Made by a program: the position numbers and the translations under genes. This document shows positions 3,263-20,492 of a stretch of DNA of 64,000 nt, in pieces. The notes under the pieces are model-generated. The model was given only the letters and a program-made list of their open reading frames with translations. It was not told where the DNA came from and did no database searches. Position 1 is the first letter of the stretch. Every line of letters starts with the position of its first letter. The DNA comes from an uncultured Candidatus Saccharibacteria bacterium (GTDB lineage Bacteria; Patescibacteriota; Minisyncoccia; Phycocordibacterales; CAIJYI01). The stretch is from the NCBI GenBank assembly GCA_964410165.1, contig CAYPFT010000002.1:367-64366 (forward strand). Reading direction: 5' to 3'.

Positions 3263-3421
3263 CGACGGAGGCATGTTTTTTTCGAGGCCGGCAAAAACGG
3301 CCGAGTTGGTGCCCAGACAAACTTTTTCGCAAAAAAATTTAGTCGATGGAAAGACTTCTCTGTTGCAGGCGTGATTGGAAGGCTCGTGTTGTGTTTTTTA
3401 AATAAAGATATTTCGTGTATA

Positions 3422-4330
3422 ATGTCTAACATGCCAGTCCAAAGTCTACAAAAAGCACAACAGTCAGTAACAGAGAATACCCTTCTAGAAATGGAACTTA
3501 GAACCATTTCCGCTGAAATTATACTCGGAGACTGCCTTGAAACTCTTAAAAGGGTGGAATCCAACTCTATTGATCTTATCGTTACATCTCCGCCGTATAG
3601 CGACCAAAGAAGCTCAACTTATGGGGGAATAAAAGCAGACAAATATGTAGAATGGTTTTTGCCAATAACAGGAGAACTTTTAAGAGTGCTGAAGCCAACA
3701 GGAACTTTTGTTTTGAATATAAAAGAAAAAGTTTCTGATGGCGAAAGACATACTTATACTCTTGAACTTATATTAGAAATGCGGAAACAAGGCTGGTTGT
3801 GGACGGAAGAATTTATTTGGCACAAAAAAAATTGTTACCCAGGAAAATGGCCGAATCGCTTCCGTGATGCATGGGAACGGCTTTTGCAGTTCAATAAAGA
3901 AAGAAAATTTAATATGTATCAAGATAATGTCATGGTACCTACGGGTGATTGGGCAAAAACAAGACTAAAAAAACTAAGCGAAACGGATAAAACGCGAGAT
4001 ACTTCTAAAGTAGGGAGTGGCTTCGGTAAAAACATCTCCAATTGGGTAGGTCGAGATATGGCATATCCAAGCAATGTGTTACATTTGGCGACCGAAAGCG
4101 GGAATAAAAATCACAGTGCCGCTTTTCCAAAGGAGTTGCCGAGGTGGTTTATCAAATTGTTTACTCAACCGGGTGATATGGTGCTAGACCCTTTTTTGGG
4201 TTCAGGTACTACGAGTGTCGTCGCAAAAGAAATGGGAAGAAATAGCATAGGTATAGAAATATTGGAAGATTATTATAATCTTGCAAAAGAAAATGTAGAT
4301 ACTACCCAAAACCAATGCGTTTTGTTTTAA
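3422..4330 (+). CDS. DNA methyltransferase (beta-class; N4-cytosine or N6-adenine)
   Basis: Motif IV SPPY (VTSPPYSDQ) precedes motif I FxGxG (DPFLGSGTT); this order is typical of m4C/m6A beta-class enzymes. The gene is very AT-rich compared with its flanks. Confidence 0.75.
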   Translation: MSNMPVQSLQKAQQSVTENTLLEMELRTISAEIILGDCLETLKRVESNSIDLIVTSPPYSDQRSSTYGGIKADKYVEWFLPITGELLRVLKPTGTFVLNIKEKVSDGERHTYTLELILEMRKQGWLWTEEFIWHKKNCYPGKWPNRFRDAWERLLQFNKERKFNMYQDNVMVPTGDWAKTRLKKLSETDKTRDTSKVGSGFGKNISNWVGRDMAYPSNVLHLATESGNKNHSAAFPKELPRWFIKLFTQPGDMVLDPFLGSGTTSVVAKEMGRNSIGIEILEDYYNLAKENVDTTQNQCVLF

Positions 4331-5097
4331 AATATATGCCAAAGCTAGATTATATAGAAATAAATAAATATATTGCCGAGGAGGTTATGAAACCATTTTA
4401 TGAAATCAGGCTTAAGAAACTGACCGAATTAAACCTAAACGCTATTCTGAAAAGAAAAAACCCGTACTTGTTTAAAGCAAAAAACATTGAGACAAGCGGA
4501 GAATTCATCAAGTATATTTTAGACGCGTATCTTTCTTCACAGGAAGAAACAATGTTTGGGAATCTTCTGGAACATTTAGCAATATTTGTTTGCGGTAAAG
4601 CTTTTAAGGGAAGAAAAGCGGAACAGGGTTTGTTGAAAAGCGTTGATTTGGAATTTGAAAGAAATAAAAAATATTATATTGTCGGAATAAAGTCTGGGAT
4701 TTATTGGGGCAACAAGGACCAGATTGACAGAATGAAGTCGAATTTTAAACAGGCAAAAAAAGTACTGAAAAAAAGCGGGGTTTCAAAAGAGATTATCGCC
4801 ATTAACGGTTGTATTTACGGAAAGGACAATAAACCGTTCAAAGCAGATGCCGACCAAGAGCAGAATTATTATAAAATATGCGGACAAGAATTTTGGGAAT
4901 TAATCTCTGGCGACAACGAGCTTTACAAGAATATAATTTTACCTTTGGACAAAGAAGCAAAAAAGAGAAGCGACCACTTCAAGGAGGCATATGCGGAAAA
5001 AACCAATGAAATGGTTAAGGAATTTTCAGATTCTTTCTTAACAAAAAAAGGCGCAATTGACTGGGAAAAAATGATTGATTTTGTATCTAAAAAATAA
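4315..5097 (+). CDS. Putative type II restriction endonuclease (cognate partner of the methyltransferase)
   Basis: Overlaps the methyltransferase stop by 16 bp with the same strand and the same AT-rich composition. No homology could be asserted from sequence alone. The call rests on position. Confidence 0.4.
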   Translation: MRFVLKYMPKLDYIEINKYIAEEVMKPFYEIRLKKLTELNLNAILKRKNPYLFKAKNIETSGEFIKYILDAYLSSQEETMFGNLLEHLAIFVCGKAFKGRKAEQGLLKSVDLEFERNKKYYIVGIKSGIYWGNKDQIDRMKSNFKQAKKVLKKSGVSKEIIAINGCIYGKDNKPFKADADQEQNYYKICGQEFWELISGDNELYKNIILPLDKEAKKRSDHFKEAYAEKTNEMVKEFSDSFLTKKGAIDWEKMIDFVSKK

Positions 5098-7694: not shown

Positions 7695-7955
7695 ATGAAA
7701 GAAATAATTTTGGAGGAACTTTCGTCGCCGGGGTGCCACAACTGCGCCGAGTTTGAAAAGTGGTGGCACACTATTGAGAGCGAATGGCCGAATGTAAAGG
7801 TCAAGAAAATAAGCATTCTCGACCCCGAAGGGCAGGAGCTCGCGGGGAAGCACATGATCATGGCGTCGCCCGGCATTATTTTGAATGGCGAACTCTTTTG
7901 CACCGGCGGGGTGGATAAGGCGAAGCTTGTGGCGAAATTGAAGGAGTTGTCGTAA
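7695..7955 (+). CDS. Thioredoxin-fold small redox protein (CxxC)
   Basis: 86 aa with a CHNC active-site-like motif near the N-terminus, of the MJ0307/glutaredoxin-like small disulfide protein type. Confidence 0.6.
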   Translation: MKEIILEELSSPGCHNCAEFEKWWHTIESEWPNVKVKKISILDPEGQELAGKHMIMASPGIILNGELFCTGGVDKAKLVAKLKELS

Positions 7956-7967
7956 GTTTGTAAAAAA

Positions 7968-8375
7968 TTAGAGCATTTCCACTGTAATTTCCCGCACTTT
8001 TTTGAGCGCTTTATCGTTTGTGATGAATTTTTTCGCTCCGGCGTCAATCGCGGTCGCTATATGAATGGCATCCGGGGTTGTGATGCTGTATTTCGCGCGA
8101 AGGTCGGAGGAAAGCCAGACGATGCGCTCGTTTATTCCGATAATGGAGAGGTTTGGAAATTTTCGAAGGCGATATTCATATTCCGCCGCAATGTTCGCCC
8201 GCCCTTTCTTTTTTGGGCCCGTCAATATCTCAATCATGCCAATCACGGAAAAAACGCCTTTGTATTTCCCGCTTTCTATGGCGTGGAGGACTTTTGCGGA
8301 TGGTGCGAGATACGCCGGATTCTCCTCAAAAAGATAGATAAAGAGGGAAGTATCAAGCGCGATTATTTTTTCCAT
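7968..8375 (-). CDS. vapC: PIN-domain ribonuclease toxin VapC
   Basis: 135 aa with the PIN signature acidic residues (ALDTS..., EIL, TPDAIHIATA). It overlaps the downstream antitoxin gene by 13 bp. Confidence 0.75.
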   Translation of the reverse strand: MEKIIALDTSLFIYLFEENPAYLAPSAKVLHAIESGKYKGVFSVIGMIEILTGPKKKGRANIAAEYEYRLRKFPNLSIIGINERIVWLSSDLRAKYSITTPDAIHIATAIDAGAKKFITNDKALKKVREITVEML

Positions 8376-8605
8376 GATGCGCGTTCTGTTTTAATATATT
8401 TCTCCGTACCCCCAAGCGACCGCCACACGTCTTTTCCGAGTCCCGAAAGCGCGGATACGGGGTTGGTGTGAGAACGCACAAGAACCGCTTTATCTTTATC
8501 CACCATATGCACCGAAACCTCCTCGCCCGCGCGAAGCCCCATGCCTTTTCGCACGGCTTTTGGAATGACGACCTGATATTTTGTCGAGAGCGTGGTGACG
8601 GGCAT
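8363..8605 (-). CDS. vapB: AbrB/MazE-family (swapped-hairpin) antitoxin VapB
   Basis: 80 aa. The N-terminal segment YQVVIPKAVRKGMGLRAGEEV matches the AbrB/SpoVT looped-hinge helix. It lies upstream of and overlaps vapC. Confidence 0.65.
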   Translation of the reverse strand: MPVTTLSTKYQVVIPKAVRKGMGLRAGEEVSVHMVDKDKAVLVRSHTNPVSALSGLGKDVWRSLGGTEKYIKTERASWKK

Positions 8606-8739: not shown

Positions 8740-10515
8740 GTGATGCCGTCACTAACCGCAAATCAAGAACCTCTCTATACCACACGGAATCTCTTGCAGG
8801 ATATCCGGCCTTTTTTGTTGCCGTATAAGTGGAAATTCATTGTCGCCACGCTGTTTCGTCTTGCGTCCGATATCGCGTGGCTCTATCCGGCATACGGGCT
8901 TGCGGTGTTGGTTACTTTTTTCACGAAATACGCTCCCGGCGTGTCTCTTGCGCCCGTAAAACAAGTTTTTATATTTTGGATGCTTGCGAGTATCGTGCGC
9001 TATGTCGGCATGTATGCGGCGAAACGAATCATGTTTGCCGTGAGCGAGCAGATGGCTTTGGATGCACAGCTTGAAACCGTCAACCATCTTTTTTTGCTTG
9101 ATATGGGGTGGCATGAGCATGAAAACTCCGGCAACAAGCTCAAGAGAATTCAACGCGGAGGAGAAAGTATTGATCGGATTTTTCGAATGTGGATAAATGC
9201 TTTTATTGAAATCGGAGTCAATTTTTTCGGGGTACTTTTCATACTGTCCAAGTTCGATGCGGCCACGGCATCGCTCACACTTCTGTTTCTTTCGACGTAT
9301 TATGTCATTGCATTTGTGTTTCGCCGCAAAGCATCGGCGGCAACACAAGTGGTGAATATAAAAGAAGAGGAGATGAACGGTCTTTTTTTCGAATCAATTA
9401 ACAATATTCGGAGCGTGAAAGTCATGTCTATGCGAAGGCCTATTTCCGAGATACTTTCCAACGAGGCGAAAGACTTGTATGGGAAAGTTTTAAAGCGCAT
9501 ATTTTGGTTTCAGATAGGGAACAGTCTCAGGGGGTTTTATGCGAACGCTTTTCGGATCGGGGTAAGCGTCTTTATCGTGTACGGCATTTTGCACGGACAC
9601 TATGAAGTTGGGTTTCTGATCCTTTTCAATACGTATTTTATGCAGATTACTACGTCCATTTCCGAACTCGCGGAAGTGACGCAAGAATTTATCATCGCCA
9701 AATTAAGCATCGGACGAATGACGGATGTTCTTCGCGAACCGGTGGGGATTGACAAAGAAGAAGGGAAAGTGCCGTTTCCGAAAGGCTGGCAAAAAATCGT
9801 CTTTAACAATGTTTCATTTTCGTACGGCGACAACGAAGTTTTGAGCGGCGTGTCTTTTGAGGTGCGCCGCGGGGAAAGAGTCGGAATCATTGGTCTTTCC
9901 GGGGCGGGGAAGTCTACGCTCTTCAAGCTTCTGTTAAAAGAGCGCGCGCCGAGCGGCGGAGAAATTCTGATTGATAGTGTTCCATTGGAGCATATCAGCA
10001 AAGAAGATTATTTCCTTCATTCCGCCGCGGTTCTTCAGGAGACGGAAGTGTTTAACTTCACGCTTCGCCAAAATATCGTTCTTGCTAACAATGAGGAGGC
10101 GGAGAATGATGAACTTTTTGAAAAATCGCTTCACATTGCTCACGTTTCCGACTTTCTTTCCAAACTCCCGCAGGGCGCAGACACGCTTATCGGGGAGAAG
10201 GGCGTGAAGTTGTCCGGCGGAGAAAAACAGCGCCTCGGTCTTGCCCGCGCGGTCTTCAAACAGCCGGAGATCCTGCTTCTGGATGAAGCCACCTCGCATT
10301 TGGACGTAGAGTCGGAAGAGAAAATCCGAAGCTCGCTTCACGAATTTTTCCAAAGCGTTACCGCGCTCGTCGTCGCGCACCGTCTTACCACTGTCCGCGA
10401 GATGGACAAAATCATCGTGATTGAGGACGGGAAAATAATAGAAGAGGGAAGTTTTGACGAACTCTACCAAAAGGGCGGGAGATTTCATGAGTTGTGGGAG
10501 AAGCAGAAGCTGTAA
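8740..10515 (+). CDS. ABC exporter, fused permease-ATPase (MsbA-like)
   Basis: Six-helix N-terminal transmembrane domain. Walker A GLSGAGKST, signature LSGGEKQR, Walker B ILLLDEATSHLD. Confidence 0.8.
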   Translation: MMPSLTANQEPLYTTRNLLQDIRPFLLPYKWKFIVATLFRLASDIAWLYPAYGLAVLVTFFTKYAPGVSLAPVKQVFIFWMLASIVRYVGMYAAKRIMFAVSEQMALDAQLETVNHLFLLDMGWHEHENSGNKLKRIQRGGESIDRIFRMWINAFIEIGVNFFGVLFILSKFDAATASLTLLFLSTYYVIAFVFRRKASAATQVVNIKEEEMNGLFFESINNIRSVKVMSMRRPISEILSNEAKDLYGKVLKRIFWFQIGNSLRGFYANAFRIGVSVFIVYGILHGHYEVGFLILFNTYFMQITTSISELAEVTQEFIIAKLSIGRMTDVLREPVGIDKEEGKVPFPKGWQKIVFNNVSFSYGDNEVLSGVSFEVRRGERVGIIGLSGAGKSTLFKLLLKERAPSGGEILIDSVPLEHISKEDYFLHSAAVLQETEVFNFTLRQNIVLANNEEAENDELFEKSLHIAHVSDFLSKLPQGADTLIGEKGVKLSGGEKQRLGLARAVFKQPEILLLDEATSHLDVESEEKIRSSLHEFFQSVTALVVAHRLTTVREMDKIIVIEDGKIIEEGSFDELYQKGGRFHELWEKQKL

Positions 10516-10574: not shown

Positions 10575-11243
10575 TTATTCTTCGGTTTTGATTGGAACGA
10601 GAACCGATTTTTTACCGAAGCTCGCAAGCCATTCTTTGATTTTTCCCCTACATGGAGGAAGCGGGTCGCAGCTAATGAAAAATATTAAAAAGGTCACAAG
10701 AAGTTGAAAAACATTGTCGTATATTTGAATTTCCGGAATCGGCAACAGCACGAAGAGGGGCATTGTAACGATAAAATACAGACGAATAAAACGATATATA
10801 ATGTTTATCTTGAGGGGATTAGACAGTCCATGACTCATTCGGTCATATGCCCATGTTTCGTTTGTTTTCCACGCCCACGCGAAATGGTTGGTAAACATAA
10901 AAATGCCGAACCAAAACCATGTCGGATTTTTTCGGTCCAAAATAAGCGTATTTTCTCCGACAAGTTCTTTTGGAAACAGGTGATAATATATCCCCAAAGA
11001 AACCATGACGATTAAAAAACTGCATAATCCGGAGTAATAATAATTCGTTTTTCCCGTCCATCGTTGGAGGAAATGACACCCTTTTTCAAAGAGGGAAAGA
11101 AAGAACCAGTCAATTTTTTGAAACATAACAGTCTCCTTGTGGAAGTTGTGAAAATTCTTTTTTACCAACTTTAATATAGCATTTTTAAGTTTCTTTGTCA
11201 AATTTTTCCGCAAGAACCGGTTTTCCATGTCCACGGTATCCAC
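10575..11243 (-). CDS. Hypothetical polytopic membrane protein
   Basis: Several hydrophobic helices and Trp-rich loops (NHFAWAWKTNETWAYDRMSHG). No assignable family. The true start may be an internal Met (MFQKIDW...). Confidence 0.45.
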   Translation of the reverse strand: MDTVDMENRFLRKNLTKKLKNAILKLVKKNFHNFHKETVMFQKIDWFFLSLFEKGCHFLQRWTGKTNYYYSGLCSFLIVMVSLGIYYHLFPKELVGENTLILDRKNPTWFWFGIFMFTNHFAWAWKTNETWAYDRMSHGLSNPLKINIIYRFIRLYFIVTMPLFVLLPIPEIQIYDNVFQLLVTFLIFFISCDPLPPCRGKIKEWLASFGKKSVLVPIKTEE

Positions 11244-11283
11244 ACCTTTTTCGGCGGGGTTTTCTTTTTCGGTGTATAATTAA

Positions 11284-11498
11284 CTCACCTTACGCACGAT
11301 TACTGTATCGGTTTTTGGTCGGTTTCTCCGCCTCTTGGCGGTGGAACCGCCAAAAACTGATACCGGGGGTCGGAGATTTGGCGGTGAGACCTCCAAGAGG
11401 AGCGACCTAAAAAACAAGGAGTGCAACGACTATGTTTTTGGAAGTACTCTTTGTGGTGGACTCACCGACCAAATCTTTCCAGTCGTGCGTAAGGTGAG
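11284..11498. mobile_element. MITE-like non-autonomous element, copy 1 (215 bp)
   Basis: 16-bp perfect terminal inverted repeats, CTCACCTTACGCACGA and TCGTGCGTAAGGTGAG. Flanked by the 7-bp direct repeat TAATTAA (11277-11283 and 11499-11505). The interior is an extended imperfect palindrome. A second copy with the same inverted repeats is at 49113. Confidence 0.7.
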
Positions 11499-11556
11499 TA
11501 ATTAAAATAACTGCTTTTGAAAAACATTTAACAGTATTTTTTTAATAAAAAAACTT

Positions 11557-14500
11557 ATGCCACCGGACAAATCAAAATCAATTCTCATTTCGTCGATTTT
11601 TGGATTACTTGCCGTTATCGTCTTCGGACTCCTCTGGTTTTTCTTCCTCGCACCCGCCGTTCCCGCCGGTGCCGGATGGTTCATCTTCAGCTTCGCGGCG
11701 GGGCTGACGATGATCGTGCTTCCGTGCACGTTGCCGCTTGCTTTCGTCATCGTGCCGCTTTCTATGGGGAAGGGGGTGGCGAAGGGGATTGGCACGGCGC
11801 TTGCTTTTGCGTTCGGTATCGTCATTACTCTGAGCATATACGGCATCATCGCATCGCTCATCGGGAAAGCCGCTCTCGGCTCTCTCGGCGCTCCGCTTGA
11901 AACGGTCAAAAATTGGGTGTACTTCATAGCGGGAATTTTCGCGTATCTTTTCGCGCTCGGTTCCATAGGGCTTCTCGCCTTCAAAATGCCGACCTACACC
12001 GGCGCGGCTCCTGAGATCATTCAGAAAAAAGAAGACTATCTCAAGGCGTTTCTCATGGGGCTTTTTCTAGGAAATATCGGTATCGGATGTCCGCACCCCG
12101 CAACCCCGCTTCTTCTCATTGAGGCGGCGACGAGCGGCAATGTGCTGTACGGCTGGCTTCTCTTTTTCGTTCATGCCGTCGGACGCGTGCTCCCGCTCCT
12201 CTTCCTTGCCTTCATGGGGATTATGGGCGTGAACGGACTTTCGTGGCTTGTGGCGCGGAAGGAGAAAGTGGAACGCGCGACAGGGTGGGCGATGGTATTC
12301 GTCGGGGCGTTCATCTTGGTGCTCGGACTGTTCTCTCATGATTGGTGGGTCAATTCGGGACAGCACACGTTGCTTGAATCCATCACACAGGAAGAAACAA
12401 TCTTGAACGTCATTGGGGAGAAACTCAACACAGGGAACGCGCATAATCACGGACTTGAGGATGGTACCGGACTGTTCGGACTTCCGCTCTGGCTCGGGAA
12501 TTGGGTGCTGGTACTTCTGTGGGTCATCCCGTTCTTCTGGTATCTCCGAAAAGAAAAAGCGCGAATCGCGCAGATTCCCGAAGCAAACCAAGTACCCGAG
12601 CGCGTGGCGGAAGAAAATACGCGCCACATGAGAAGGAAGTTTTACATCGCACTCGCCATTGCGCTTGGCGCCATCTTTATTTACATTTTGCCGATGCGAT
12701 TTTACAACCAATCAATCGGTATCGGCGCGGGGCACGATGAAATGAAGATGACTGTTTCTGTCGGCGGCGAAACCTTTTCGCAAGACATTATCGGCCTTCC
12801 CGAAGCGAAGCCGTCCGAGGTCGTTTCGCTCAAAAACGGCGACACCTACACCCTCTCTCCTGGCGCGGTCTGGAAAGAAATAAACGGCAAGCGCGTAAAA
12901 ATGCTCGCGTACAACGGCATGATTCCGGGGCCGACGATTAAAGCGAAACAGGGGAGCGAGGTTATCATTCATTTCGTTAATAATTTGGAGATTAAAGATA
13001 CTCTGCATCCTCACGGCGTGCGCCTCAACAACAAATTTGATGGCGTGGCGGGGGTTACGCAAGAGCCGGTACTGCCCGGCGGATCATTTGACTACAAAAT
13101 CAAGTTTCCCGATTCGGGAATTTACTGGTACCACTCGCACATGAACGAGGCGTATACCCAGAATCTCGGCATGTATGGCGCGCTTCTCGTTGCTCCAAAA
13201 AGCGGCGAATTTTCCGGTCGTGAAGAAGTGGTTTTCTTGAGCGACTTGCTGATGAACGAAAGCGGCATCGCGCCATTCCCGAAAGACTTCACCGACCATG
13301 CGATGATGGGGCGATTCGGGAATACGATGCTTGTGAACGGAAGCACGAAGTATCGATTTATCGCGGCTCCCGGCGAGACAGTCCGTTTCCATTTCGTTGA
13401 TTCCGCCGTCGCGCGAACATTCCGATTGAGCATACTCGAAAAATGGGGAGGAGAGAAGGCGCAAAAGACTATTGTGACGCAAGTCGGGAGCGATGGGGGG
13501 GAAATGGAGCGCAAAATTGAGGTAGGCGAAGTAATCCTCAGTCCCGGCGAACGCGCAACGGTAGATATTCGTTTTCCTGAAAAAGAAGGAGCATACCATC
13601 TGTATCATGAATCGTCGAAACAACCATATTTACTTGCAACATTTGACGTAAAAGGCGAGGTACTGAAAGCCGCAAAAGAAATTACGTATGAAGACAAGCC
13701 GATTTTCTCAAAAGAAGAATTGAATCGTTATCGCATCGCGCCGCCCGACAAACGGATCAAGCTTTCTCTTGTGGCGGATATGAATGCGATGATGAAAGGC
13801 ATGGGCGATGGAATGATGATGCCGGCAGGCGCGGAACCCGCGGGGCATGATAATTCCGACGGACACCACGGAAGCGCGGGGATTGTTTCTGAAGCGCACG
13901 CGAGCACACCCATGCCTTTCGCCATGGACATGTCAAATATGCAGAACATGAATATGGGCGGCATGATGGGCGGCACACCGCAGAAGATAGAATGGGAAGA
14001 CGATATGGGCGCGATGAACGCCATGTCCAATTCCAACAGCGTGAAATGGGAAATAATAGACGAGGATAATGGCAGAGCAAACGGCGACATCAACTGGACG
14101 TTCAGTAAGGGAGACATGGTGAAGGTTCGGATTTTCAATGACCCGAAATCCATGCACCCAATGCAGCACCCGATACATTTCCATGGACAGCGATTCGTCG
14201 TGCTTGCGACGAACGGTGCGCCGAACGATAATATGGCGTGGAAAGACACGACGCTCGTGCAGACAGGGGACACCGTTGATATTCTCGTCGAGATGTCGAA
14301 CCCCGGCTTCTGGATGGCGCATTGCCACATCGCGGAACACCTCCACTCCGGCATGATGTTCGGTTTCGTGGTGAAAGACGGCAAAGTGGCGGCTGGGGGC
14401 GAAGAAGACTATAAAATTGTGATGCCGCAAGAACGAAGCCAACTCGCGTCAGCGTACGCATGGGCGCACGGCGATGAAGAAGACGGACATGAAGAACCCG

Positions 14501-14613
14501 CACCCGCCGCACAAGGGCAAGTGCCGATCAAATTCGTCCTCATTCTCGTTTCGCTTCTTCTCATGGGAGCTTTGAGTTACGGCGTCTGGCGGTATTTGGA
14601 TGTGAAGAAGTAA
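11557..14613 (+). CDS. Fusion of a CcdA/DsbD-like thiol-disulfide transporter membrane domain to a multicopper oxidase with a Met/His-rich segment and C-terminal membrane anchor
   Basis: The first ~260 aa have 6-8 transmembrane helices with Cys in LPCTLP and GCPHPATPLL, the CcdA pattern of one Cys in each of two helices. Multicopper oxidase copper ligands are present (HPHG, WYHSHMNE, HPIHFHG, HCHIAEHLHSGMM). There is a Met/His-rich insert (MMKGMGDGMMMP...NMQNMNMGGMMGG) and a terminal hydrophobic helix. Confidence 0.8.
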   Translation: MPPDKSKSILISSIFGLLAVIVFGLLWFFFLAPAVPAGAGWFIFSFAAGLTMIVLPCTLPLAFVIVPLSMGKGVAKGIGTALAFAFGIVITLSIYGIIASLIGKAALGSLGAPLETVKNWVYFIAGIFAYLFALGSIGLLAFKMPTYTGAAPEIIQKKEDYLKAFLMGLFLGNIGIGCPHPATPLLLIEAATSGNVLYGWLLFFVHAVGRVLPLLFLAFMGIMGVNGLSWLVARKEKVERATGWAMVFVGAFILVLGLFSHDWWVNSGQHTLLESITQEETILNVIGEKLNTGNAHNHGLEDGTGLFGLPLWLGNWVLVLLWVIPFFWYLRKEKARIAQIPEANQVPERVAEENTRHMRRKFYIALAIALGAIFIYILPMRFYNQSIGIGAGHDEMKMTVSVGGETFSQDIIGLPEAKPSEVVSLKNGDTYTLSPGAVWKEINGKRVKMLAYNGMIPGPTIKAKQGSEVIIHFVNNLEIKDTLHPHGVRLNNKFDGVAGVTQEPVLPGGSFDYKIKFPDSGIYWYHSHMNEAYTQNLGMYGALLVAPKSGEFSGREEVVFLSDLLMNESGIAPFPKDFTDHAMMGRFGNTMLVNGSTKYRFIAAPGETVRFHFVDSAVARTFRLSILEKWGGEKAQKTIVTQVGSDGGEMERKIEVGEVILSPGERATVDIRFPEKEGAYHLYHESSKQPYLLATFDVKGEVLKAAKEITYEDKPIFSKEELNRYRIAPPDKRIKLSLVADMNAMMKGMGDGMMMPAGAEPAGHDNSDGHHGSAGIVSEAHASTPMPFAMDMSNMQNMNMGGMMGGTPQKIEWEDDMGAMNAMSNSNSVKWEIIDEDNGRANGDINWTFSKGDMVKVRIFNDPKSMHPMQHPIHFHGQRFVVLATNGAPNDNMAWKDTTLVQTGDTVDILVEMSNPGFWMAHCHIAEHLHSGMMFGFVVKDGKVAAGGEEDYKIVMPQERSQLASAYAWAHGDEEDGHEEPAPAAQGQVPIKFVLILVSLLLMGALSYGVWRYLDVKK

Positions 14614-14637: not shown

Positions 14638-15186
14638 ATGAATGAGGAATCGTCACCGCCCTCCACCATTATGGAAAATACACAAGAAAAAACAGAGATA
14701 GAATTTATGGTAGAGAAAAGCCCAATGAAGGAAGCGTATAAATTGCTTGGCGCACAGACCCCATTTGAACTTTTTGATTTGTACGATAAAGAAGACCAGA
14801 GATTAATGAAAGCGGGTTTGTGGGATTATGATAACCCCAATCTCATCGTAAACAAGATAAAAAATATTATTGAAAGCATTGACATTAATGAACTTACGGA
14901 AGAGGAAAACGAATGGAGGCAGGAAATTCTTTGGTTTTGGTATCACCATGCAATCAGTTGTGCAATCTGGAGGTATAAAGACAAAGATAAGGCAAAAATA
15001 TACTCCGCCAAAGCATTTCAGTATCATCTAAACGACAACCAAAATCAGATAACTAAACTGCTAGATTTTCTTGTAAATGGTCAGGTAAAAGAAGCCGAAG
15101 AGTGGGCGGAAAAAATTCAAGACGAAGTGGAACAAAAAACAGCATCAGATTTGATTAAGGAGTACAAAGAAAAAGGATTTTTCTAA
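14638..15186 (+). CDS. Hypothetical protein
   Basis: 182 aa, acidic and helical, with no recognisable motif. An RBS-like AAGGA lies upstream. Confidence 0.4.
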   Translation: MNEESSPPSTIMENTQEKTEIEFMVEKSPMKEAYKLLGAQTPFELFDLYDKEDQRLMKAGLWDYDNPNLIVNKIKNIIESIDINELTEEENEWRQEILWFWYHHAISCAIWRYKDKDKAKIYSAKAFQYHLNDNQNQITKLLDFLVNGQVKEAEEWAEKIQDEVEQKTASDLIKEYKEKGFF

Positions 15187-15360
15187 AAATCCTTTTTTGT
15201 TGTAAATAAAAAAGTGCGGGGTGTCGTCTTTTATGGTATCATGTGCTTATGATTGCCCGCGAAAAAATCAAAGAAGTCGCCGACAAAATCGCTCGGGAAT
15301 TCGAGCCGAAATTTGAACAAACACAAGAAATGTTGTAACATACAAACTCCCACCGCTTTC

Positions 15361-15582
15361 ATGATAATCTTCACCAATCATGCTTTATTGAAACTGAAGC
15401 AGAGAAATCTGACGAAAGAGAAGGTGATACAAACGGTTGAAAATCCTGACGAAATAATGCTCACGTACGGAGAGCGAAACGCTGTTCTGAAAAAATTCGG
15501 CAAGCTCTATTTGAAAGTGGTATTTCGCAAAGATGGGAAAGATGTGATTATTATCACGCAACATTGGATAACCAAAACATAA
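15361..15582 (+). CDS. DUF4258-family toxin-like protein
   Basis: MIIFTNHALLKLKQRNLTKEKVIQTVENPDEI... matches the DUF4258 pattern (HAxxRxxER, then vlenPd). It is followed 7 bp later by a DUF2283 gene, a known pairing. Confidence 0.6.
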   Translation: MIIFTNHALLKLKQRNLTKEKVIQTVENPDEIMLTYGERNAVLKKFGKLYLKVVFRKDGKDVIIITQHWITKT

Positions 15583-15588
15583 ACCGCC

Positions 15589-15822
15589 ATGAAAATAACT
15601 TACGACCCATACGCCGACGCGCTTTCCATTTCTTTTAAAGAGGGGAAAGTGAAGAAAACCATCGAGATTGCGCCCGAGGTGAATTTGGATGTGGATGCGA
15701 AAGAACGACCGCTCTATCTTGAAATTTTAGGAGTGCGGGAGAAAATCGGGAAAGCGAATGTGGAGGAGATAACGATGAAGAATATTTTTATCGGTAAAAA
15801 TGCAACACTCGTTGCGACATAA
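15589..15822 (+). CDS. DUF2283-family protein (partner of DUF4258)
   Basis: MKITYDPYADALSISFKEGK... is the canonical DUF2283 N-terminus. Confidence 0.65.
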   Translation: MKITYDPYADALSISFKEGKVKKTIEIAPEVNLDVDAKERPLYLEILGVREKIGKANVEEITMKNIFIGKNATLVAT

Positions 15823-15834
15823 GAGTAGCATCAT

Positions 15835-16134
15835 ATGGAAAACATCCGAGAAAAAATTAAAAAAGCCGTAGAAAAAAACCCGTATAAAAAAGACATACGG
15901 CGTATTTCACTTTTCGGTTCGGAGCTTCATGGTACGGCGAAAGAAGGAAGCGATGTTGATTTGCTGGTGGAATTCATACCGGGCGCGAAAATCAGCTTTT
16001 TTAAGCTGGACGATATTGAAGAAAGTTTTGAGAAAGAGATAGGGCGCAATGTGGATTTGGTCACCCCGTGCGCACTGAGCCATTTTTTCCGTGATAAAGT
16101 GCTTGCCGAGGCGGAACTCCTTTATCATGCATAA
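15835..16134 (+). CDS. Minimal nucleotidyltransferase (MNT) antitoxin of a HepT/MNT module
   Basis: GSELHGTAKEGSDVDLLVEF is the GSx9-13DxD polymerase-beta-like nucleotidyltransferase motif. The downstream HepT-like reading frame is disrupted. Confidence 0.7.
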   Translation: MENIREKIKKAVEKNPYKKDIRRISLFGSELHGTAKEGSDVDLLVEFIPGAKISFFKLDDIEESFEKEIGRNVDLVTPCALSHFFRDKVLAEAELLYHA

Positions 16135-16452: not shown

Positions 16453-16935
16453 ATGAACAAATATATTTACCTTATCATTGCGATGGTCGTCATACTCGGT
16501 GTCGGCGTCGCGTACAAAAATTTCGGAGCGGATAAAAGCAAGGCCGCTCTGACGACGGGGGAGGTGAAAGAGATTACGATTCGCGCGCAGAAGAACAAAT
16601 GGAACTGGTCGCCGGAGGATATTACTGTCAATCAGGGCGATACCGTCAAGCTCACGATTATCAATGAAGACGAATATGACCACGGCATTGCGATAGACGC
16701 CTACGGCATTTCACAGCGGGTTCCGGCACTCGGCACCATTGAAGCGGAATTCGTGGCGACTCAGCCGGGGGACTTTCCGTTCTACTGCTCCGTCCCGTGC
16801 GGGGAGGGGGAAGTGGACGGCGTGAAGCGCGGGCACTTTGACCAAGTGGGGAAGATACACGTGACCCACATGATGATGGATGGAAAAATGATGGAGGGCG
16901 ACATGCCGCACGACGAAATGATGAAGACGCAATAA
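16453..16935 (+). CDS. Membrane-anchored cupredoxin-like copper-binding protein with Met-rich tail
   Basis: N-terminal transmembrane helix. The cupredoxin-type segment has H...CxxxC...H (DHGIAID...FYCSVPCGEGEVDGVKRGH). The C-terminus is Met/His-rich (HVTHMMMDGKMMEGDMPHDEMM), suggesting Cu(I) binding. Confidence 0.6.
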   Translation: MNKYIYLIIAMVVILGVGVAYKNFGADKSKAALTTGEVKEITIRAQKNKWNWSPEDITVNQGDTVKLTIINEDEYDHGIAIDAYGISQRVPALGTIEAEFVATQPGDFPFYCSVPCGEGEVDGVKRGHFDQVGKIHVTHMMMDGKMMEGDMPHDEMMKTQ

Positions 16936-17000: not shown

Positions 17001-17279
17001 ATGCGACACATCCCTGAATTTTTTCAACCCATTTTCTGGTCATATGATTTCAGAGCTCTTGATGCCGAAAAGCACAAGAGAACCATCGTGGTTCAGACGA
17101 TTAACTATGGGAGGTGGAAGCACTGGCGATTTATCGCGGACAGGTACGGCAAAAACGGCGTTGCCGAGATAATAGCCTCCGAACCGGCAAGCGCATTTCG
17201 CAAACCAGCGCTTTTCTTGGCGAAGATTCTTTTTAGCGTTGAGAAACAAGCACATGCACTTCGAAGCACTCACAGATAA
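17001..17279 (+). CDS. Small protein upstream of AbiEii-like toxin; putative cognate antitoxin
   Basis: 92 aa, overlapping the start of the downstream AbiEii-like gene. No HTH recognised. Called on position only. Confidence 0.3.
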   Translation: MRHIPEFFQPIFWSYDFRALDAEKHKRTIVVQTINYGRWKHWRFIADRYGKNGVAEIIASEPASAFRKPALFLAKILFSVEKQAHALRSTHR

Positions 17280-17877
17280 AGGAAAAGAAATATTTCCGAA
17301 ACTCTCGCTGTTTTCGGGTTTTTATCTTGCCGGCGGAACAGCGCTTGCGCTTCAAATCGGACATCGCGTTTCCATAGACTTCGATTTTTTTACCGATGAG
17401 AAGATAAAAAAAACACTGCTCGCGAAAGCGGAAAGCATCTTTTCACCGAGCAGTCTTGAGATTTTTGTAAACAACTCGGGCGAACTCACTTTTTCCGTCA
17501 ACGACGTGAAAATCACTTTTCTTACCTATCCTTTTCCGGCGTTGCTTCCAAAAGTAAAAGTAGAAAAAGGCGAGTTTTGGCTCTTGGGCGTAAAAGAACT
17601 TGCCGCTACGAAAGCTTACACGATAGGAAGGCGAGGTGAACTCAAGGATTACATTGATGTATATTTTCTCCTCAAAGAAGGGCATACGACGCTTTTTGAA
17701 ATTTCCGAACTCGCGGAAAAGAAATACGGTGAAGCGTTTGACACAAGGCTTTTTCTTGAACAATTGCTGTATTTGGATGACATAGAAGACGTACAAATAG
17801 AATTTTTGAAAGACCCTGTCGGAAAAGAAGAACTCAAAAAGTTTTTTGAAGGGGAAATAGGAAAAATAAAGCTGTAA
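17254..17877 (+). CDS. AbiEii/AbiGii-family nucleotidyltransferase toxin-like protein
   Basis: FYLAGGTALALQIGHRVSIDFDFF matches the GG-TAL...HR-S-D-D-F signature of the AbiEii family. Confidence 0.65.
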   Translation: MHFEALTDKGKEIFPKLSLFSGFYLAGGTALALQIGHRVSIDFDFFTDEKIKKTLLAKAESIFSPSSLEIFVNNSGELTFSVNDVKITFLTYPFPALLPKVKVEKGEFWLLGVKELAATKAYTIGRRGELKDYIDVYFLLKEGHTTLFEISELAEKKYGEAFDTRLFLEQLLYLDDIEDVQIEFLKDPVGKEELKKFFEGEIGKIKL

Positions 17878-17993: not shown

Positions 17994-20492
17994 ATGACCA
18001 AACTCGTACTTAAGGTAAAAGGCATGCACTGCGCGTCGTGCTCCATCTTGATCGACAAACTGCTCGGAAGTCAGCCGGGGGTGGTGTCAATAAAGACGAG
18101 CTACGGCGCGGAGAAGACGGCGGTTGAGTTTGATGAGTCGAAGATAACTCTTGAGAAAATGGACGAGTTCGTACACAAGCTCGGCTACGACATTATCCGT
18201 CCCGACGAAGAAGGCGCAAGCATTGAAGACCAAGAAAAGAAAGAAGCGCTTATAATCAAACAAGCGAAGCGGCGCGTCATTGCGGCGTTTATTATTGCGG
18301 CGCCTATCATAATTTACTACATGGTTATTCACATGTTTAACGTAACGCATGTGCATGAGCTTTTTGACTTTTTGAATTTGAAACAGCCGGTGGCGGGGGT
18401 CGCATCTGCCGGGTCATACGCGGTGCAGTATATGTTTTGGATGATTGCGAGCGCACTCAAGGCGTTTGTCGGGCTTTTTGTAGACGTAGCGAATCCGCCT
18501 TTCAAAATTGACCTCAATTATATTTACTGGATTCTTTCCACGCCCATACAGTTCGTCATCGGTTGGCCGTTTTACCGCAATGCATTTACCGCTATCCGCG
18601 TCGGCGTGGCGAACATGGATGTACTCGTCGTACTCGGCACTTCCGCCGCGTATTTTTACAGCGCAATCGGTTTTCTTTTTTTCAACATTGACCACCCGTT
18701 TTGGGAAAGTTCCGCCGCGCTTCTCTGCTTCATTCTTCTCGGGCGCTATATTGAAGTACTCGCTCGCGGTCGTGCCTCAAATGCCATTAAGGAACTTTTG
18801 AAACTGGAAGCGAAAGAAGCGCATGTGGTTCGTGATGGGCAGGAAGTTACCGTGCCGATAGATAAAATTCTTCTCGGGGATGTCGTCATTGTAAAGCCGG
18901 GTGAAAAAATACCCGTTGACGGCGTGATTGTTGAAGGAAAATCGCATATTGACGAGAAAGTGGTTACGGGGGAATCGTTTCCGGTAGGAAAGGGTGTCGG
19001 CGAAGAAGTTATCGGCGCGACGGTCAATCAGGAAGGCTTGATAAAATTCCGTGCGACGAAAGTCGGGAAAGACACGCTTTTGTATCAAATCATCAAAATG
19101 GTGGAAGAGGCGCAGGCGACGCGCGCGCCAATTCAAGACTTAGTGGACAAAATCAGTGAGTACTTCGTGCCTGCGGTTGTTTTGCTTTCCATGATGACGT
19201 TCGTCGGGTGGTATTTCTTCACCGGCATTGATTCATTCCGTTCGGCTTTGATGAAAATGATCGCGGTGCTCGTCATCTCCTGTCCGTGCGCCATGGGGCT
19301 TGCGACGCCGACCGCGCTTGTGGTGGGTATCGGCCGCGCCGCGAAGTTCGGCATTATTTTGAAAGGCGGAGAAGCGCTGGAAAAGGCCTATCGCGTTACA
19401 ACTTTCGTTTTCGATAAAACCGGCACGCTTACCATCGGCAAGCCCACCGTCACGGATGTGGTATTTCTTTCCGACTGGCATGACCGCGATAAAATTATTC
19501 ATCTTGCCGCCTCCATTGAACAAGGCTCTGAACATCCTCTTGCCCGCGCGGTGGTGGAAGAAGGGAAGAAACTCGGGCACCTCGGAGAATTGCGCGATTT
19601 TGAAGCCGTAGCCGGAATGGGGATTCATGGATGGACGGGCGCGCATGATGAGATTTATATCGGCAACGAGGCGTATATGGCAAAACTCGGTATTGATATA
19701 GCGGCGCATAAGCCGGCACTTGAAAAACTGCAAGGAGAAGCGAAGACCGCCGTGTTTATGTGTACCGCCAAAACCCCCGTGGCGCTTATCGCGATGGCGG
19801 ATACCTTGAAGCCGTTTGCGCTTGAGGCGATAGCTGAGCTCAAAAAAATGGGGAAAGAGATCGTGATGATTACCGGCGACAATCAAAAGACCGCGGAAGC
19901 AATCGCAAAGCAGGTCGGCATTGACCGCGTGATGGCACAGGTGCTTCCGCAAGATAAAGCAGAACAGGTGAAGAAACTCCAAACAGAAGGAAAGAATGTG
20001 GCGATGGTGGGCGACGGTATCAATGATTCTCCGGCGCTTGCGCAGGCAAATCTCGGCATTGCCGTTGGAAGCGGTACGGACGTTGCCATTGAGACAGGAG
20101 AGATCATCCTTGTGAAAGACGATCTTCGCGACGTAGTTACCGCGATCCAGCTTTCTCAAAGAACGATGCGAAAAATTTGGCAGAATCTTTTTTGGGCATT
20201 CTTCTACAACGTCATCGCCATTCCGGTCGCCGCCGGCGCGCATCTCCTCGTTACCCAGACCACGTTCGGCATTGCGGCAGGATGGACACTCGCCATGAAA
20301 GAGAGCATGGGCTGGTTCGGAAACGTCCTCTTCTCCCTCTCACAAACCACCCTCCGCCCGGAGATTGCCGGATTCGCGATGGCGTTCTCGTCCGTTTCGG
20401 TTGTGGCGAACTCGCTCTTGCTGCGCCGCTACGTCCCCACCATGGAGCGGGAGAGTGTAAGGGAGGTTGAAAGTGCCGACCAAAAAACTTGA
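17994..20492 (+). CDS. copA: Copper-translocating P1B-type ATPase CopA
   Basis: N-terminal heavy-metal-associated domain GMHCASC, transmembrane CPC motif ([12 protein letters not shown]), DKTGTLT phosphorylation site, [10 protein letters not shown] hinge. Confidence 0.9.

Follow-up and report, generated by a model that had tools for sequence, protein, structure and literature searches.

The fusion gene and its membrane module

The window, a stretch of 64,000 nucleotides analysed over its whole length, comes from an uncultured Candidatus Saccharibacteria bacterium and carries, at 11557..14613 (all features described here are on the + strand), a gene with an ATG start that encodes a protein of 1018 aa, exactly as the original prediction had it. 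As judged by Pfam and by homologues, the protein consists, in order, of an eight-helix DsbD-like membrane module, an anchor helix (TM8), a three-domain multicopper oxidase and a C-terminal anchor. It contains a total of three cysteines, C57, C178 and the type-1 copper ligand C923. An identical protein (P0001) was present among the database homologues, more than 90 of which have the same architecture, and the ORF is unbroken across more than 90 independent assemblies. The gene fusion is genuine and recurrent in tiny, uncultured Patescibacteria, and these homologues refute the possibility that a frameshift had joined two adjacent genes. A literature search found no published description of a DsbD-like module fused to a multicopper oxidase, and to that extent the fusion is undescribed as claimed. 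However, it is already visible in public databases, where the JGI automatic annotation names both halves.

The module begins with an extra N-terminal helix (TM0, aa 8-32, 11578..11652), identified by hydropathy and seen as a helix at 5-30 in the AF2 model, which is predicted to set the Lys-rich N-terminus in the cytoplasm. The six-helix DsbD_TM core (aa 44-262, 11686..12342) was recognised by PF02683, hhalign and its conserved cysteines. In the Pfam profile search, aa 44-220 matched PF02683 with a score of 32.7 bits, above the curated cut-off (27.1 bits); the match is precomputed in nearly all of 120 homologues, and the NCBIfam models DsbD and TsoB gave weak matches over the same span. Both cysteine motifs named in the original prediction were found, LPCTLP (C57, codon 11725-11727) and GIGCPHPATP (C178, codon 12088-12090). 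When aligned by hhalign to E. coli DsbD (84.5% probability, E 6.9e-6), C57 fell on the cysteine of TPCVLP and C178 on the second cysteine of CSPC, which we take to be Cys163 (TM1) and Cys285 (TM4), respectively. The essential membrane cysteines of DsbD are numbered Cys163 and Cys285, and what defines the family is a pair of this kind, through which electrons from thioredoxin in the cytoplasm reach an exported partner (PMC3322552). Equivalents of C57 and C178 are present in all 120 homologues, 121 residues apart in 116 and 119-123 apart in the remaining four, a pattern that does not arise by chance, and the AF2 model shows helices broken at 55-57 and 177-181, at both membrane cysteines. The module therefore shares with DsbD, CcdA and ScsB (PF02683; TCDB 5.A.1) a six-helix core with cysteines at the same aligned positions in the first and fourth helices, proline-flanked cysteine motifs and, as compared with 122 residues in E. 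coli DsbD, nearly the same spacing, whereas the second motif reads G-C-P-H-P in place of the P-C of DsbD. On these profile and alignment data the N-terminal module is assigned to the DsbD/CcdA family as a divergent member, as had been predicted.

The predicted length of ~260 aa was too short, although the polytopic, two-cysteine character of the domain was confirmed. The conserved module reaches ~aa 335 and includes TM0, the core, a His-rich outer loop and a final helix, TM7 (aa 304-330, 12466..12546). It is followed by TM8 (aa 362-382, 12640..12702), the anchor that takes the ectodomain outwards; both helices were placed using the sequence, the AF2 model and split homologues. The topology is fixed by the positive-inside rule, with 24 Lys/Arg in the loops assigned inside and three in the short outside loops, and the loop before TM8 was assigned inside because it contains nine Lys/Arg.

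In the split homologues, which had been suggested as a check, the break lies between TM7 and TM8. The first gene stops just past TM7, TM8 becomes the N-terminal anchor of the second gene, and the stop and start codons overlap, which indicates that the halves are separate units that work together. As judged by the same class of distant relatives, the module, with 55-67% identity (alignment A1), is far better conserved than the oxidase, the full-length identity being ~45%. It follows from these data that a plain membrane anchor for the oxidase, or a pair of genes joined by sequencing error, can hardly be credited. Exported enzymes do need anchors if there is no outer membrane, and a further point in favour of this explanation is that TM8 and the C-terminal helix already anchor the ectodomain. 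However, the difference in conservation, the invariant cysteines, prolines and histidines of the module and its occurrence without any ectodomain all speak against a plain anchor, while an artefact is opposed by the unbroken ORFs and by the true split forms, which break at another, defined point. The conservation data already contradict both versions.

An extracytoplasmic loop (aa 261-303, 12337..12465) lies between the core and TM7, and the alignment columns for H261-x-W-W-V-x-S-G-x-H270 and H296-x-H298-G are invariant. The loop was placed outside because it has one Lys/Arg in 41 residues, and neither the Pfam nor the hhalign match to DsbD extends over it. The loop is a candidate site for metal binding or docking. 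The invariant histidines of the module, H180 (beside C178), H206, H261, H270, H296 and H298, together suggest metal binding, and this counts against the module being an electron conduit.

The main alternative to a conduit is that the N-terminal domain has been re-purposed to bind or translocate copper. Cu(I) would be held by C57, C178 and H180 in the membrane and by the outer loop, and would then pass to the ectodomain (the oxidase, or the His/Met of Ig-like domains) and to a cupredoxin encoded nearby, for metallation or disposal. The histidine adjoining the second cysteine (CPHP) and the four invariant histidines of the loop favour this, as does the survival of the scaffold in Cys-less relatives: in a sister clade further away both cysteines are gone while the fold motifs remain. 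The scaffold can thus work in a function that needs no thiols, which also counts against a conduit. However, the next tier of relatives has Asn or Ser in place of H180 and still retains both cysteines, and the positions, spacing and flanking prolines of the cysteines match the redox family. We know of no DsbD_TM member for which metal transport has been demonstrated. The DsbD family is nonetheless assigned to the LysE superfamily, in which most families are exporters of metal ions such as Ni/Co, Mn and Fe/Pb (PMC4608589), and Cu(I) binding by DsbD or ScsB proteins has been raised as a possibility for archaea (PMC7785015). With the operon evidence given below included, we consider a copper-handling module unlikely.

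The oxidase and the relatives of the module

The ectodomain (~aa 440-945, 12874..14391) was identified as a three-domain multicopper oxidase from Pfam, NCBIfam, motifs and solved relatives. Cu-oxidase_3 matched aa 444-549 (E 1e-29) and Cu-oxidase_2 matched aa 841-942 (E 1e-27), so that the Pfam search suggested earlier returned two oxidase families as well as DsbD_TM. The copper motifs H484-P-H486, H526-S-H528, H871-x2-H874-x-H876 and H922-C923-H924-x3-H928-x4-M933 include all type-1 and trinuclear-centre ligands, and are kept in 83-94 of the 94 oxidase-type homologues. Ahead of cupredoxin domain 3 lies a Met/His-rich insert recognised from its composition (aa 741-825, 13777..14031), which has up to 14 Met per 60 aa and is the richest among the homologues. 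The C-terminal anchor helix (aa 985-1010, 14509..14586), evident in the sequence and shared with the relatives that have Ig-like domains, is followed by the basic tail RYLDVKK. The oxidase is therefore complete, with all four His motifs, the insert and the C-terminal hydrophobic helix as predicted, and according to the predicted topology it faces outwards, held by a helix at either end.

The relatives of the oxidase are CueO and bacterial laccase-like oxidases, and relatives with solved structures matched it with E 1e-43 to 1e-25. The match to the CueO-like NCBIfam model NF008205 (E 1e-43) scored 149.8 bits against an equivalog cut-off of 525, and hence the oxidase is CueO-like and orthology with CueO was rejected. 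Like CueO-type cuprous oxidases and bacterial three-domain laccase-like oxidases such as Thermus Tth-MCO, it has three cupredoxin domains, four copper motifs, a Met-rich segment before domain 3 and genetic linkage to a CopA pump. It differs from them in being neither soluble nor periplasmic, since it is anchored at both ends and joined to an eight-helix module. It is a putative cuprous oxidase; the Met-rich insert points to Cu(I) as its substrate.

The module is not tied to an oxidase. Its commonest fusion partner is a Cys-free tandem of Ig-like domains, and at 50 of the 69 scored loci Ig-like domains are found in place of an oxidase, in the same operon. It was also seen fused to a two-domain oxidase or standing alone, and the stand-alone relatives keep eight helices. 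The module clade is present in at least 196 species-level genomes, almost all from Patescibacteria according to record titles, and forms a separate compact branch, since its profile reaches only 442 proteins among 1.84 billion.

These findings do not support the original prediction of a supply of thiols or electrons that the fusion would hard-wire to the oxidase. Apart from the type-1 copper ligand, the oxidase domain has no cysteine, and thus the ectodomain offers no cysteine pair for a DsbD-type thiol-disulfide relay. The proposal is further undercut by the conserved module occurring more often on the Cys-free Ig-like domains, or alone.

The copper operon and candidate partners

The module belongs to a conserved copper-handling operon that is found almost only in Patescibacteria. 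The set comprises a thioredoxin-like CxxC protein, a DoxX/MauE-like membrane protein, the module with its ectodomain, a CX3C cupredoxin and a CopA-type ATPase, and the partners are identical whether or not the ectodomain is an oxidase. Every member except the DoxX/MauE-like gene is present in the window, where toxin-antitoxin genes separate them, and no shared operator sequence was found upstream of the operon fragments in the window. This break-up by inserted genes and the lack of a shared operator count against an electron conduit.

The thioredoxin-like protein (7695..7955, 86 aa) includes the motif SPGCHNC and matched Pfam Thioredoxin_3 with 29.6 bits (cut-off 24.8); neither a signal peptide nor a TM segment was found in it. 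A homologue lies directly upstream of the module at 47 of 80 loci, an arrangement that differs from that of DsbD. PGCxxC and SPG are conserved in this partner, with CxHC or CHxC in 42 of the 47. A histidine within CxxC is typical of rather oxidising enzymes, for example PDI and DsbA. Such a motif would be odd for a reductant donor and counts against the conduit; the protein is nevertheless a candidate dedicated electron donor.

Directly downstream of the module, at 55 of the 80 loci, is the gene for the CX3C cupredoxin. In the window this gene (16453..16935) encodes a membrane-anchored, CuA-like cupredoxin with a Met-rich tail, recognised by Pfam Cupredoxin_1 and by homology to nitrosocyanin and to the CuA domains of NosZ and CoxB. 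Its invariant residues are H77, C112-x3-C116 and R126-x-H128, the His and the two Cys aligning with those of CuA domains. As compared with H-x(33-40)-C-x3-C-x3-H-x2-M, which we take to be the PROSITE signature of CuA, H77-x34-C112-x3-C116 is invariant, the position of the next His varies (E, D, H, others) and there is no Met, with the invariant R-x-H in place of the canonical second His and Met. The cupredoxin is a candidate extracytoplasmic acceptor or copper-binding partner. The fifth gene (17994..20492), present at 64 of the 80 loci, encodes a CopA-type P1B-1 Cu(I)-exporting ATPase with an HMA domain, as judged by Pfam and by its CPC, YN..P, MxxSS and CxxC motifs.

Across the 80 loci, no exported thioredoxin-fold gene was a regular member of the operon or fused to the module, and a DsbA-like gene was near it at only 10. 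The normal partner of DsbD, an exported thioredoxin-fold acceptor, is thus missing from both places, which is a further point against a conduit. The sole conserved exported cysteine pair in the operon is the CX3C of the cupredoxin. Separate operon genes, 7695..7955 and 16453..16935, encode the likely redox partners, alongside CopA; these were absent from the original prediction.

The operon also bears on the copper-handling alternative, under which the CxHC protein would be a cytoplasmic copper carrier or a keeper of reduced ligand cysteines. The histidine in the CxxC of 42 of the 47 small proteins would fit this, as would the fused and neighbouring extracytoplasmic domains, all of which are copper-type or His/Met-rich and none of which has a thioredoxin fold. 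However, a pump dedicated to Cu(I) is already encoded in the operon.

In its strongest form, the hard-wiring idea would make the operon a quinone-free chain running from cytoplasmic thiols through the thioredoxin-like protein, C57/C178, the CuA-like cupredoxin and the type-1 copper of the oxidase to O2, with formation of water. In bacteria that are generally reported to be without a respiratory chain, such a minimal thiol:oxygen oxidoreductase would serve to balance redox state or to defend against oxygen. All components are encoded in one operon and lie at the correct sides of the membrane, the oxidase has an intact oxygen-reducing trinuclear site, and CuA-type cupredoxins are electron-transfer centres. 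However, the oxidase cannot be the conserved end point, because most modules (those of the 50 loci noted above) have none. The loss of the canonical CuA second His and Met, the unprecedented hand-over here from a two-electron thiol to a one-electron copper, and the Met-rich insert, which would make Cu(I) the substrate, are further objections, and such a chain is very unlikely.

The cysteine pair might instead reduce Cu(II) at the His-rich loop and deliver Cu(I) to the ectodomain or the cupredoxin, in which case the forms that carry an oxidase would control the balance between Cu(I) and Cu(II) on the cell surface. Reduction of Cu(II) by thiols occurs readily, the loop adjoins the exit of the cysteine pathway and the operon partners appear to be copper-binding proteins. 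A cupric reductase and a cuprous oxidase in one polypeptide would, however, amount to a futile cycle; no copper importer is evident in the operon and there is no precedent in the DsbD family, making this activity highly improbable.

Known systems and the role of the module

As in DsbD and ScsB, extra helices after the core lead to a C-terminal extracytoplasmic domain. Unlike in DsbD, the place of this domain is taken by a multicopper oxidase or by Ig-like domains in Cys-free tandem, neither of which has a thioredoxin fold or redox cysteines; there is no alpha domain, and the protein has gained one more N-terminal helix and the invariant His-rich outer loop. Two features of the ScsB class are its alpha domain and a Lys that is conserved eight residues beyond the first membrane cysteine (PMC3322552). 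Assignment to this class was rejected, as the module has no N-terminal periplasmic domain and residue 65 (C57+8) is Ile in PCTLPLAFVIVP, a segment that is invariant, Ile65 included, across the module family. The CcdA class, a membrane domain of six helices only, was rejected given the presence of TM0, the His-rich loop, TM7, TM8 and a large ectodomain. ScsB links DsbD-family proteins, DsbD among them, to copper tolerance (PMC3322552), and the module lies in a copper operon. The E. coli dsbD gene adjoins cutA.

Another parallel may be the assembly of CuA by TlpA, ScoI and PcuC, fed by CcdA/DsbD, in which a membrane reductant route keeps the two copper-bridging cysteines of a membrane-anchored CuA cupredoxin reduced for copper insertion, a task performed before metallation by TlpA in Bradyrhizobium (PMC6669012). 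The likeness, drawn from gene order only, is that a DsbD-like module lies near a CX3C CuA-like cupredoxin and a copper pump. The cupredoxin differs from the target of that system in being no cytochrome oxidase subunit and in lacking the canonical second His and Met, and the module operon yielded no thioredoxin-fold intermediary of the TlpA or Sco type. CopC-CopD (YcnJ-type) fusions of Gram-positive bacteria and Thaumarchaeota also join an extracytoplasmic, copper-binding beta domain to a polytopic membrane protein, which has been rationalised by the want of a true periplasm (PMC7785015). However, there is no family relationship, CopD lacks a pair of cysteines, and the two systems also differ in their partners and in the direction of transport, which is import for CopD.

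The best explanation, to which we give slightly less than even confidence, is that the module is a conduit for reductant, dedicated to keeping the cysteines of copper sites reduced, and is tethered to a cuprous oxidase. From the direction of electron flow and the donor and acceptor that we infer, C57/C178 would receive electrons on the cytoplasmic side, with the thioredoxin-like CxxC protein of the operon as the most likely donor, and would hand an electron pair to the outer face. The acceptor would probably be a separate exported thiol pair, the best candidate being the CX3C pair of the cupredoxin, which would need the dithiol state for copper binding; other surface thiols oxidised by copper are possible alternatives. 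We know of no precedent for a cupredoxin as a DsbD-type electron acceptor. Meanwhile, the Met-rich oxidase would turn Cu(I) pumped out by CopA into less toxic Cu(II). Since the oxidase has no cysteines to take electrons, the module and the oxidase are probably teammates that are not directly wired. Patescibacteria are thought to have no outer membrane to retain soluble proteins, and the fusion would thus act as a tether that holds two cooperating activities together, rather than as a direct electron wire.

To our knowledge, the extracytoplasmic partner that receives the electrons is thioredoxin-like in every characterised DsbD-family class. In the present case, a well-conserved DsbD branch is joined to Cys-free copper domains instead. 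It is possible, though quite unlikely, that the module represents a fourth class of the DsbD superfamily coupled to copper chemistry, providing a quinone-free electron path from cytoplasmic thiols through the CuA-like cupredoxin to an oxygen-reducing oxidase or moving or reducing copper itself; if true, this would be a new link of the cytoplasmic redox state with the cell surface in Patescibacteria without a respiratory chain. If the module still carries electrons, its acceptor would be of a new kind, maybe the ligand cysteines of a cupredoxin, and these would offer a compact model of how cells that lack a periplasm keep their copper sites ready to take up metal. If it handles copper, the DsbD family would gain its first metal transporter. 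The system is small enough for tests by expression in E. coli or Bacillus, and either outcome bears on how very small, mostly uncultured, host-dependent and gene-poor bacteria cope with copper and oxygen.

Architecture of the fusion protein

The ORF at 11557..14613 (+) is uninterrupted, has a level GC content throughout, junction included, and encodes a product of 1018 aa. Pfam searches identified a DsbD_TM domain (PF02683; aa 44-220; 32.7 bits as compared with the curated cut-off of 27.1), a Cu-oxidase_3 domain (aa 444-549; E 1e-29) and a Cu-oxidase_2 domain (aa 841-942; E 1e-27). Among the NCBIfam models, a CueO-like match (E 1e-43) fell far under the equivalog cut-off, and aa 43-254 gave weak matches to the membrane domains of DsbD and TsoB. 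The motifs quoted in the original prediction are present, with C57 within LPCTLP and C178 within GIGCPHPATP, as are the four copper motifs of the oxidase half, its Met/His-rich insert (approximately aa 741-825, with up to 14 Met per 60 residues) and a C-terminal hydrophobic helix (aa 985-1010). The oxidase half bears cuprous-oxidase hallmarks. The whole protein includes three cysteines, namely C57, C178 and the type-1 copper ligand C923.

The topology was derived from a reading of the sequence, supplemented with the AF2 secondary structure. A Lys-rich N-terminus is followed by TM0 (aa 8-32) and a six-helix core (aa 44-262), in which the breaks in helices 1 and 4 coincide exactly with the two cysteines, then by an outside loop (about aa 261-303), TM7 (aa 304-330), an inside loop with nine Lys/Arg, and TM8 (aa 362-382), which precedes the oxidase. 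The C-terminal helix, read from the sequence, is followed by a basic tail. Lys/Arg residues number 24 in the loops assigned to the inside and 3 in the short outside loops; the oxidase is therefore outward-facing and held in the membrane at both ends.

A database search returned one identical protein and more than 90 proteins that share its architecture, the named examples being from metagenome-assembled genomes of Parcubacteria, Paceibacteria and Patescibacteria. The closest named relative (84% identity) is from a Parcubacteria group bacterium. Both membrane cysteines are kept in all 120 retrieved homologues, with a spacing of 121 residues in 116 of them, and essentially no cysteine is found elsewhere except the type-1 ligand. 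The possibility that a frameshift had joined two adjacent genes was ruled out, as the ORF is continuous both here and in the >90 homologues from independent assemblies, and the even GC content over the junction also speaks against it. The fusion is real, as predicted, and recurrent.

Split versions, the search for which had been part of the original prediction, were found in relatives. The two genes always part between TM7 and TM8, a point that differs from the DsbD/oxidase border that had been pictured, and the stop codon of the first often overlaps the start codon of the second. The second gene of the split loci begins with TM8 as an anchor, and its product is an oxidase in locus L034 and an Ig-like protein in loci L080, L045 and L069. 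The fusion therefore consists of an eight-helix module and an anchored ectodomain protein that are otherwise operon neighbours.

The DsbD-like module and its ectodomains

The profile of the module, built from an alignment in which identity to the query's module is 55-67%, was aligned by hhalign to translated E. coli DsbD (probability 84.5%, E 6.9e-6), and together with the Pfam score this bears out the proposed DsbD/CcdA family assignment. The alignment pairs C57 with the cysteine of TPCVLP and C178 with the second cysteine of CSPC, which we take to be Cys163 and Cys285. These two essential cysteines are the family-defining residues (PMC3322552). At E ≤ 1e-3, the module profile reaches only 442 proteins among 1.84 billion representatives, so that canonical CcdA/DsbD proteins lie largely beyond it; the module clade is both divergent and compact. 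Invariant residues outside the DsbD-matching regions include H180, located beside C178, and H206-x2-G-R210 in the fifth helix, together with H261-x-WWV-x-SG-x-H270 and H296-x-H298-G in the outside loop. Unlike ScsB, the module does not include the ScsB-specific lysine.

A distant sister clade of ~400-455 aa proteins (P0138, P0146, P0160, P0169, P0182, P0186, P0189, P0200 and P0226) has lost both membrane cysteines; LPSMLP and GSPHPA, for instance, stand in the place of the motifs that held them. In the fifth helix, H-A-x-G-R is retained, as is, in several members, a WW motif in the form HxWW or SxWW. The scaffold can therefore also serve a non-thiol function.

The module was seen in at least 196 species-representative genomes. 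It is joined to a three-domain oxidase, with or without an additional C-terminal beta domain, to a two-domain oxidase, to ~350 residues of cysteine-free beta structure, or to shorter tails, and it also stands alone. Oxidase forms account for 15, and non-oxidase forms for 50, of 69 species-representative loci whose ORF is complete. The non-oxidase ectodomain includes invariant H-x-H-P and G-x-Y-K motifs, and its model, a confident one (pLDDT 81), shows two Ig-like sandwiches in tandem. No Pfam match was obtained for it even at E 10, and Foldseek returned generic Ig-like/E-set matches, the metal-binding Zcp among them, and no specific family.

Gene neighbourhood in relatives and in the window

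Neighbouring genes were clustered across 80 fetched module loci, nearly all labelled Patescibacteria, and the gene order was found to be fixed. The first gene (47 of 80 loci) encodes a Thioredoxin_3 protein of ~88 aa with an invariant PGCxxC motif, an SPG loop and no signal peptide; 42 of the 47 members have a His between the two cysteines. Directly upstream of the module (45 of 80 loci) lies a gene for a cysteine-free four-helix membrane protein of ~130 aa (cluster 4; e.g. L031:7607-8005), for which matches to DoxX, MauE and DoxD were all sub-threshold. The third gene, encoding the module with its ectodomain, is followed by one for a membrane-anchored Cupredoxin_1 protein of ~145 aa with an invariant D-H...C-S-V-x-C...R-x-H pattern (55 of 80 loci), and then by one for a P1B-1 Cu(I) ATPase, CopA, of ~780 aa with HMA, CPC, YN..P and MxxSS motifs (64 of 80 loci).

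Other genes accompany the operon less often. In 10 of the 80 loci, a membrane-anchored DsbA-like protein (cluster 6; Thioredoxin_4/DSBA, CPFC; e.g. L004:3333-4043 (-)) is encoded a few genes upstream; none was found within the window. The predicted product of this gene shows that exported disulfides are formed in the organisms carrying it, and it prompts the question of how the DsbA-like enzyme is re-oxidised or reduced. A membrane protein of ~180 aa without a Pfam match (cluster 7) is encoded after CopA in eight loci (e.g. L044:14819-15364), and a pterin-4a-carbinolamine dehydratase gene (cluster 11) lies near CopA in five of the 80 (L003, L004, L023, L034 and L046). In the E. coli locus, L081, dsbD directly adjoins cutA, and a 2025 paper reports that CutA has pteridine ligands by which copper binding is modulated (PMC12685090). 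The parallel may be a coincidence.

The window includes copies of the genes for the thioredoxin-like protein (7695..7955), the cupredoxin (16453..16935) and CopA (17994..20492); the DoxX-like cluster-4 gene is absent from it. Homologues of the cupredoxin include nitrosocyanin as well as the CuA domains of N2O reductase and of cytochrome oxidase subunit II. Residues H77, C112 and C116 of the cupredoxin align with the CuA His and Cys ligands, and the canonical second CuA His and Met are not conserved. An iron ferroxidase-permease of the Fet3-Ftr1 or EfeUOB type, suggested by the Cupredoxin_1 domain of this partner, was set aside because the ATPase has Cu(I) signature motifs and the oxidase a Met-rich insert.

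The operon is contiguous in most relatives; in the window, toxin-antitoxin pairs, an ABC exporter and small genes separate the partners from the fusion gene. Interruptions of toxin-antitoxin type lie at 7968-8605 (-), 15253-16134 (+) and 17001-17877 (+), and the interrupting genes are a PIN/MazE-like pair, a DUF4258/DUF2283 pair, a small nucleotidyltransferase and a DUF6922/AbiEii pair. Past the thioredoxin-like gene and ahead of the fusion gene lie the genes for the ABC exporter (8740-10515) and for a membrane protein of 222 aa (10575-11243 (-)); these two are also found directly upstream of the fusion gene in the locus of the closest relative, L001. When the upstream sequences of the window's four scattered operon fragments were compared, no operator/promoter motif common to them was found. 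An Rfam scan of the window found two tRNAs and nothing else.

Just upstream of the fusion gene, the intergenic region 11272-11510 includes ~239 nt of nested inverted repeats that form one long imperfect hairpin (MFE -124 kcal/mol; z-score -12.7 compared with shuffles). The outer arms are a perfect 17-nt pair (11283-11299/11483-11499), and inner pairs lie at 11314-11332/11455-11473 and 11331-11354/11377-11400. Candidate identities for this element, which has no match in Rfam, are a structured RNA, a regulatory element and the relic of a small mobile element. A 182-aa ORF (14638-15186 (+)) starts 25 nt past the stop codon of the fusion gene; neither a Pfam match nor a counterpart in any of the 80 related loci was found for it. 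At 3371-5097 (+), genes for an N6/N4 DNA methylase and, after it, an EcoO109I-family endonuclease make up a type II restriction-modification pair.

Proposed role of the module

The conserved set comprises a thioredoxin-like protein without an export signal, the transmembrane module with its two cysteines, an exported copper protein with a CX3C motif and a Cu(I) pump. The favoured reading of this set is a copper-handling unit whose module would carry reducing power across the membrane. DsbD-family proteins support copper tolerance (PMC3322552), and such a need has a precedent in the two bridging cysteines of CuA, which must stay in the dithiol form before copper insertion; in Bradyrhizobium this is ensured by TlpA (PMC6669012). 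The neighbouring CopA pump would deliver the Cu(I) substrate to the oxidase.

This role as a reductant conduit is weakened by the lack of a thioredoxin-fold acceptor, by the rather oxidising-looking CxHC-type motif of the small protein, by the many invariant histidines of the module and by the distant sister clade that dispensed with both cysteines and kept the scaffold. All four features leave room for a module that binds or translocates copper itself; in further support of that role, the DsbD family is described as belonging to the LysE superfamily of metal exporters (PMC4608589). We consider a copper-binding or copper-translocating role unlikely, if well short of negligible.

Returning to the supply of reducing power, the original prediction had the module hard-wired to the oxidase. 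While its family assignments, the fusion and the split forms stand, direct electron or thiol supply to the oxidase was not upheld: the oxidase has no acceptor cysteines and the module more often serves other ectodomains, and the fusion is therefore taken as a tether between cooperating activities, not a wire. On paper, electrons could travel all the way to oxygen via the cupredoxin and the oxidase, but this cannot be the conserved function, as most operons do not include an oxidase.

A literature search found no description of the fusion, in agreement with the original prediction, or of the operon; a lead from Corynebacterium (PMC3353115) was discarded, as ccdA and the oxidase belong there to unrelated regulons. 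Automatic JGI names already list both halves, and the architecture is abundant in public data. The components are thus familiar and the combination is not, making this a variant within a known superfamily, and it opens a testable question, namely whether Patescibacteria have a DsbD-type transporter of a new class.
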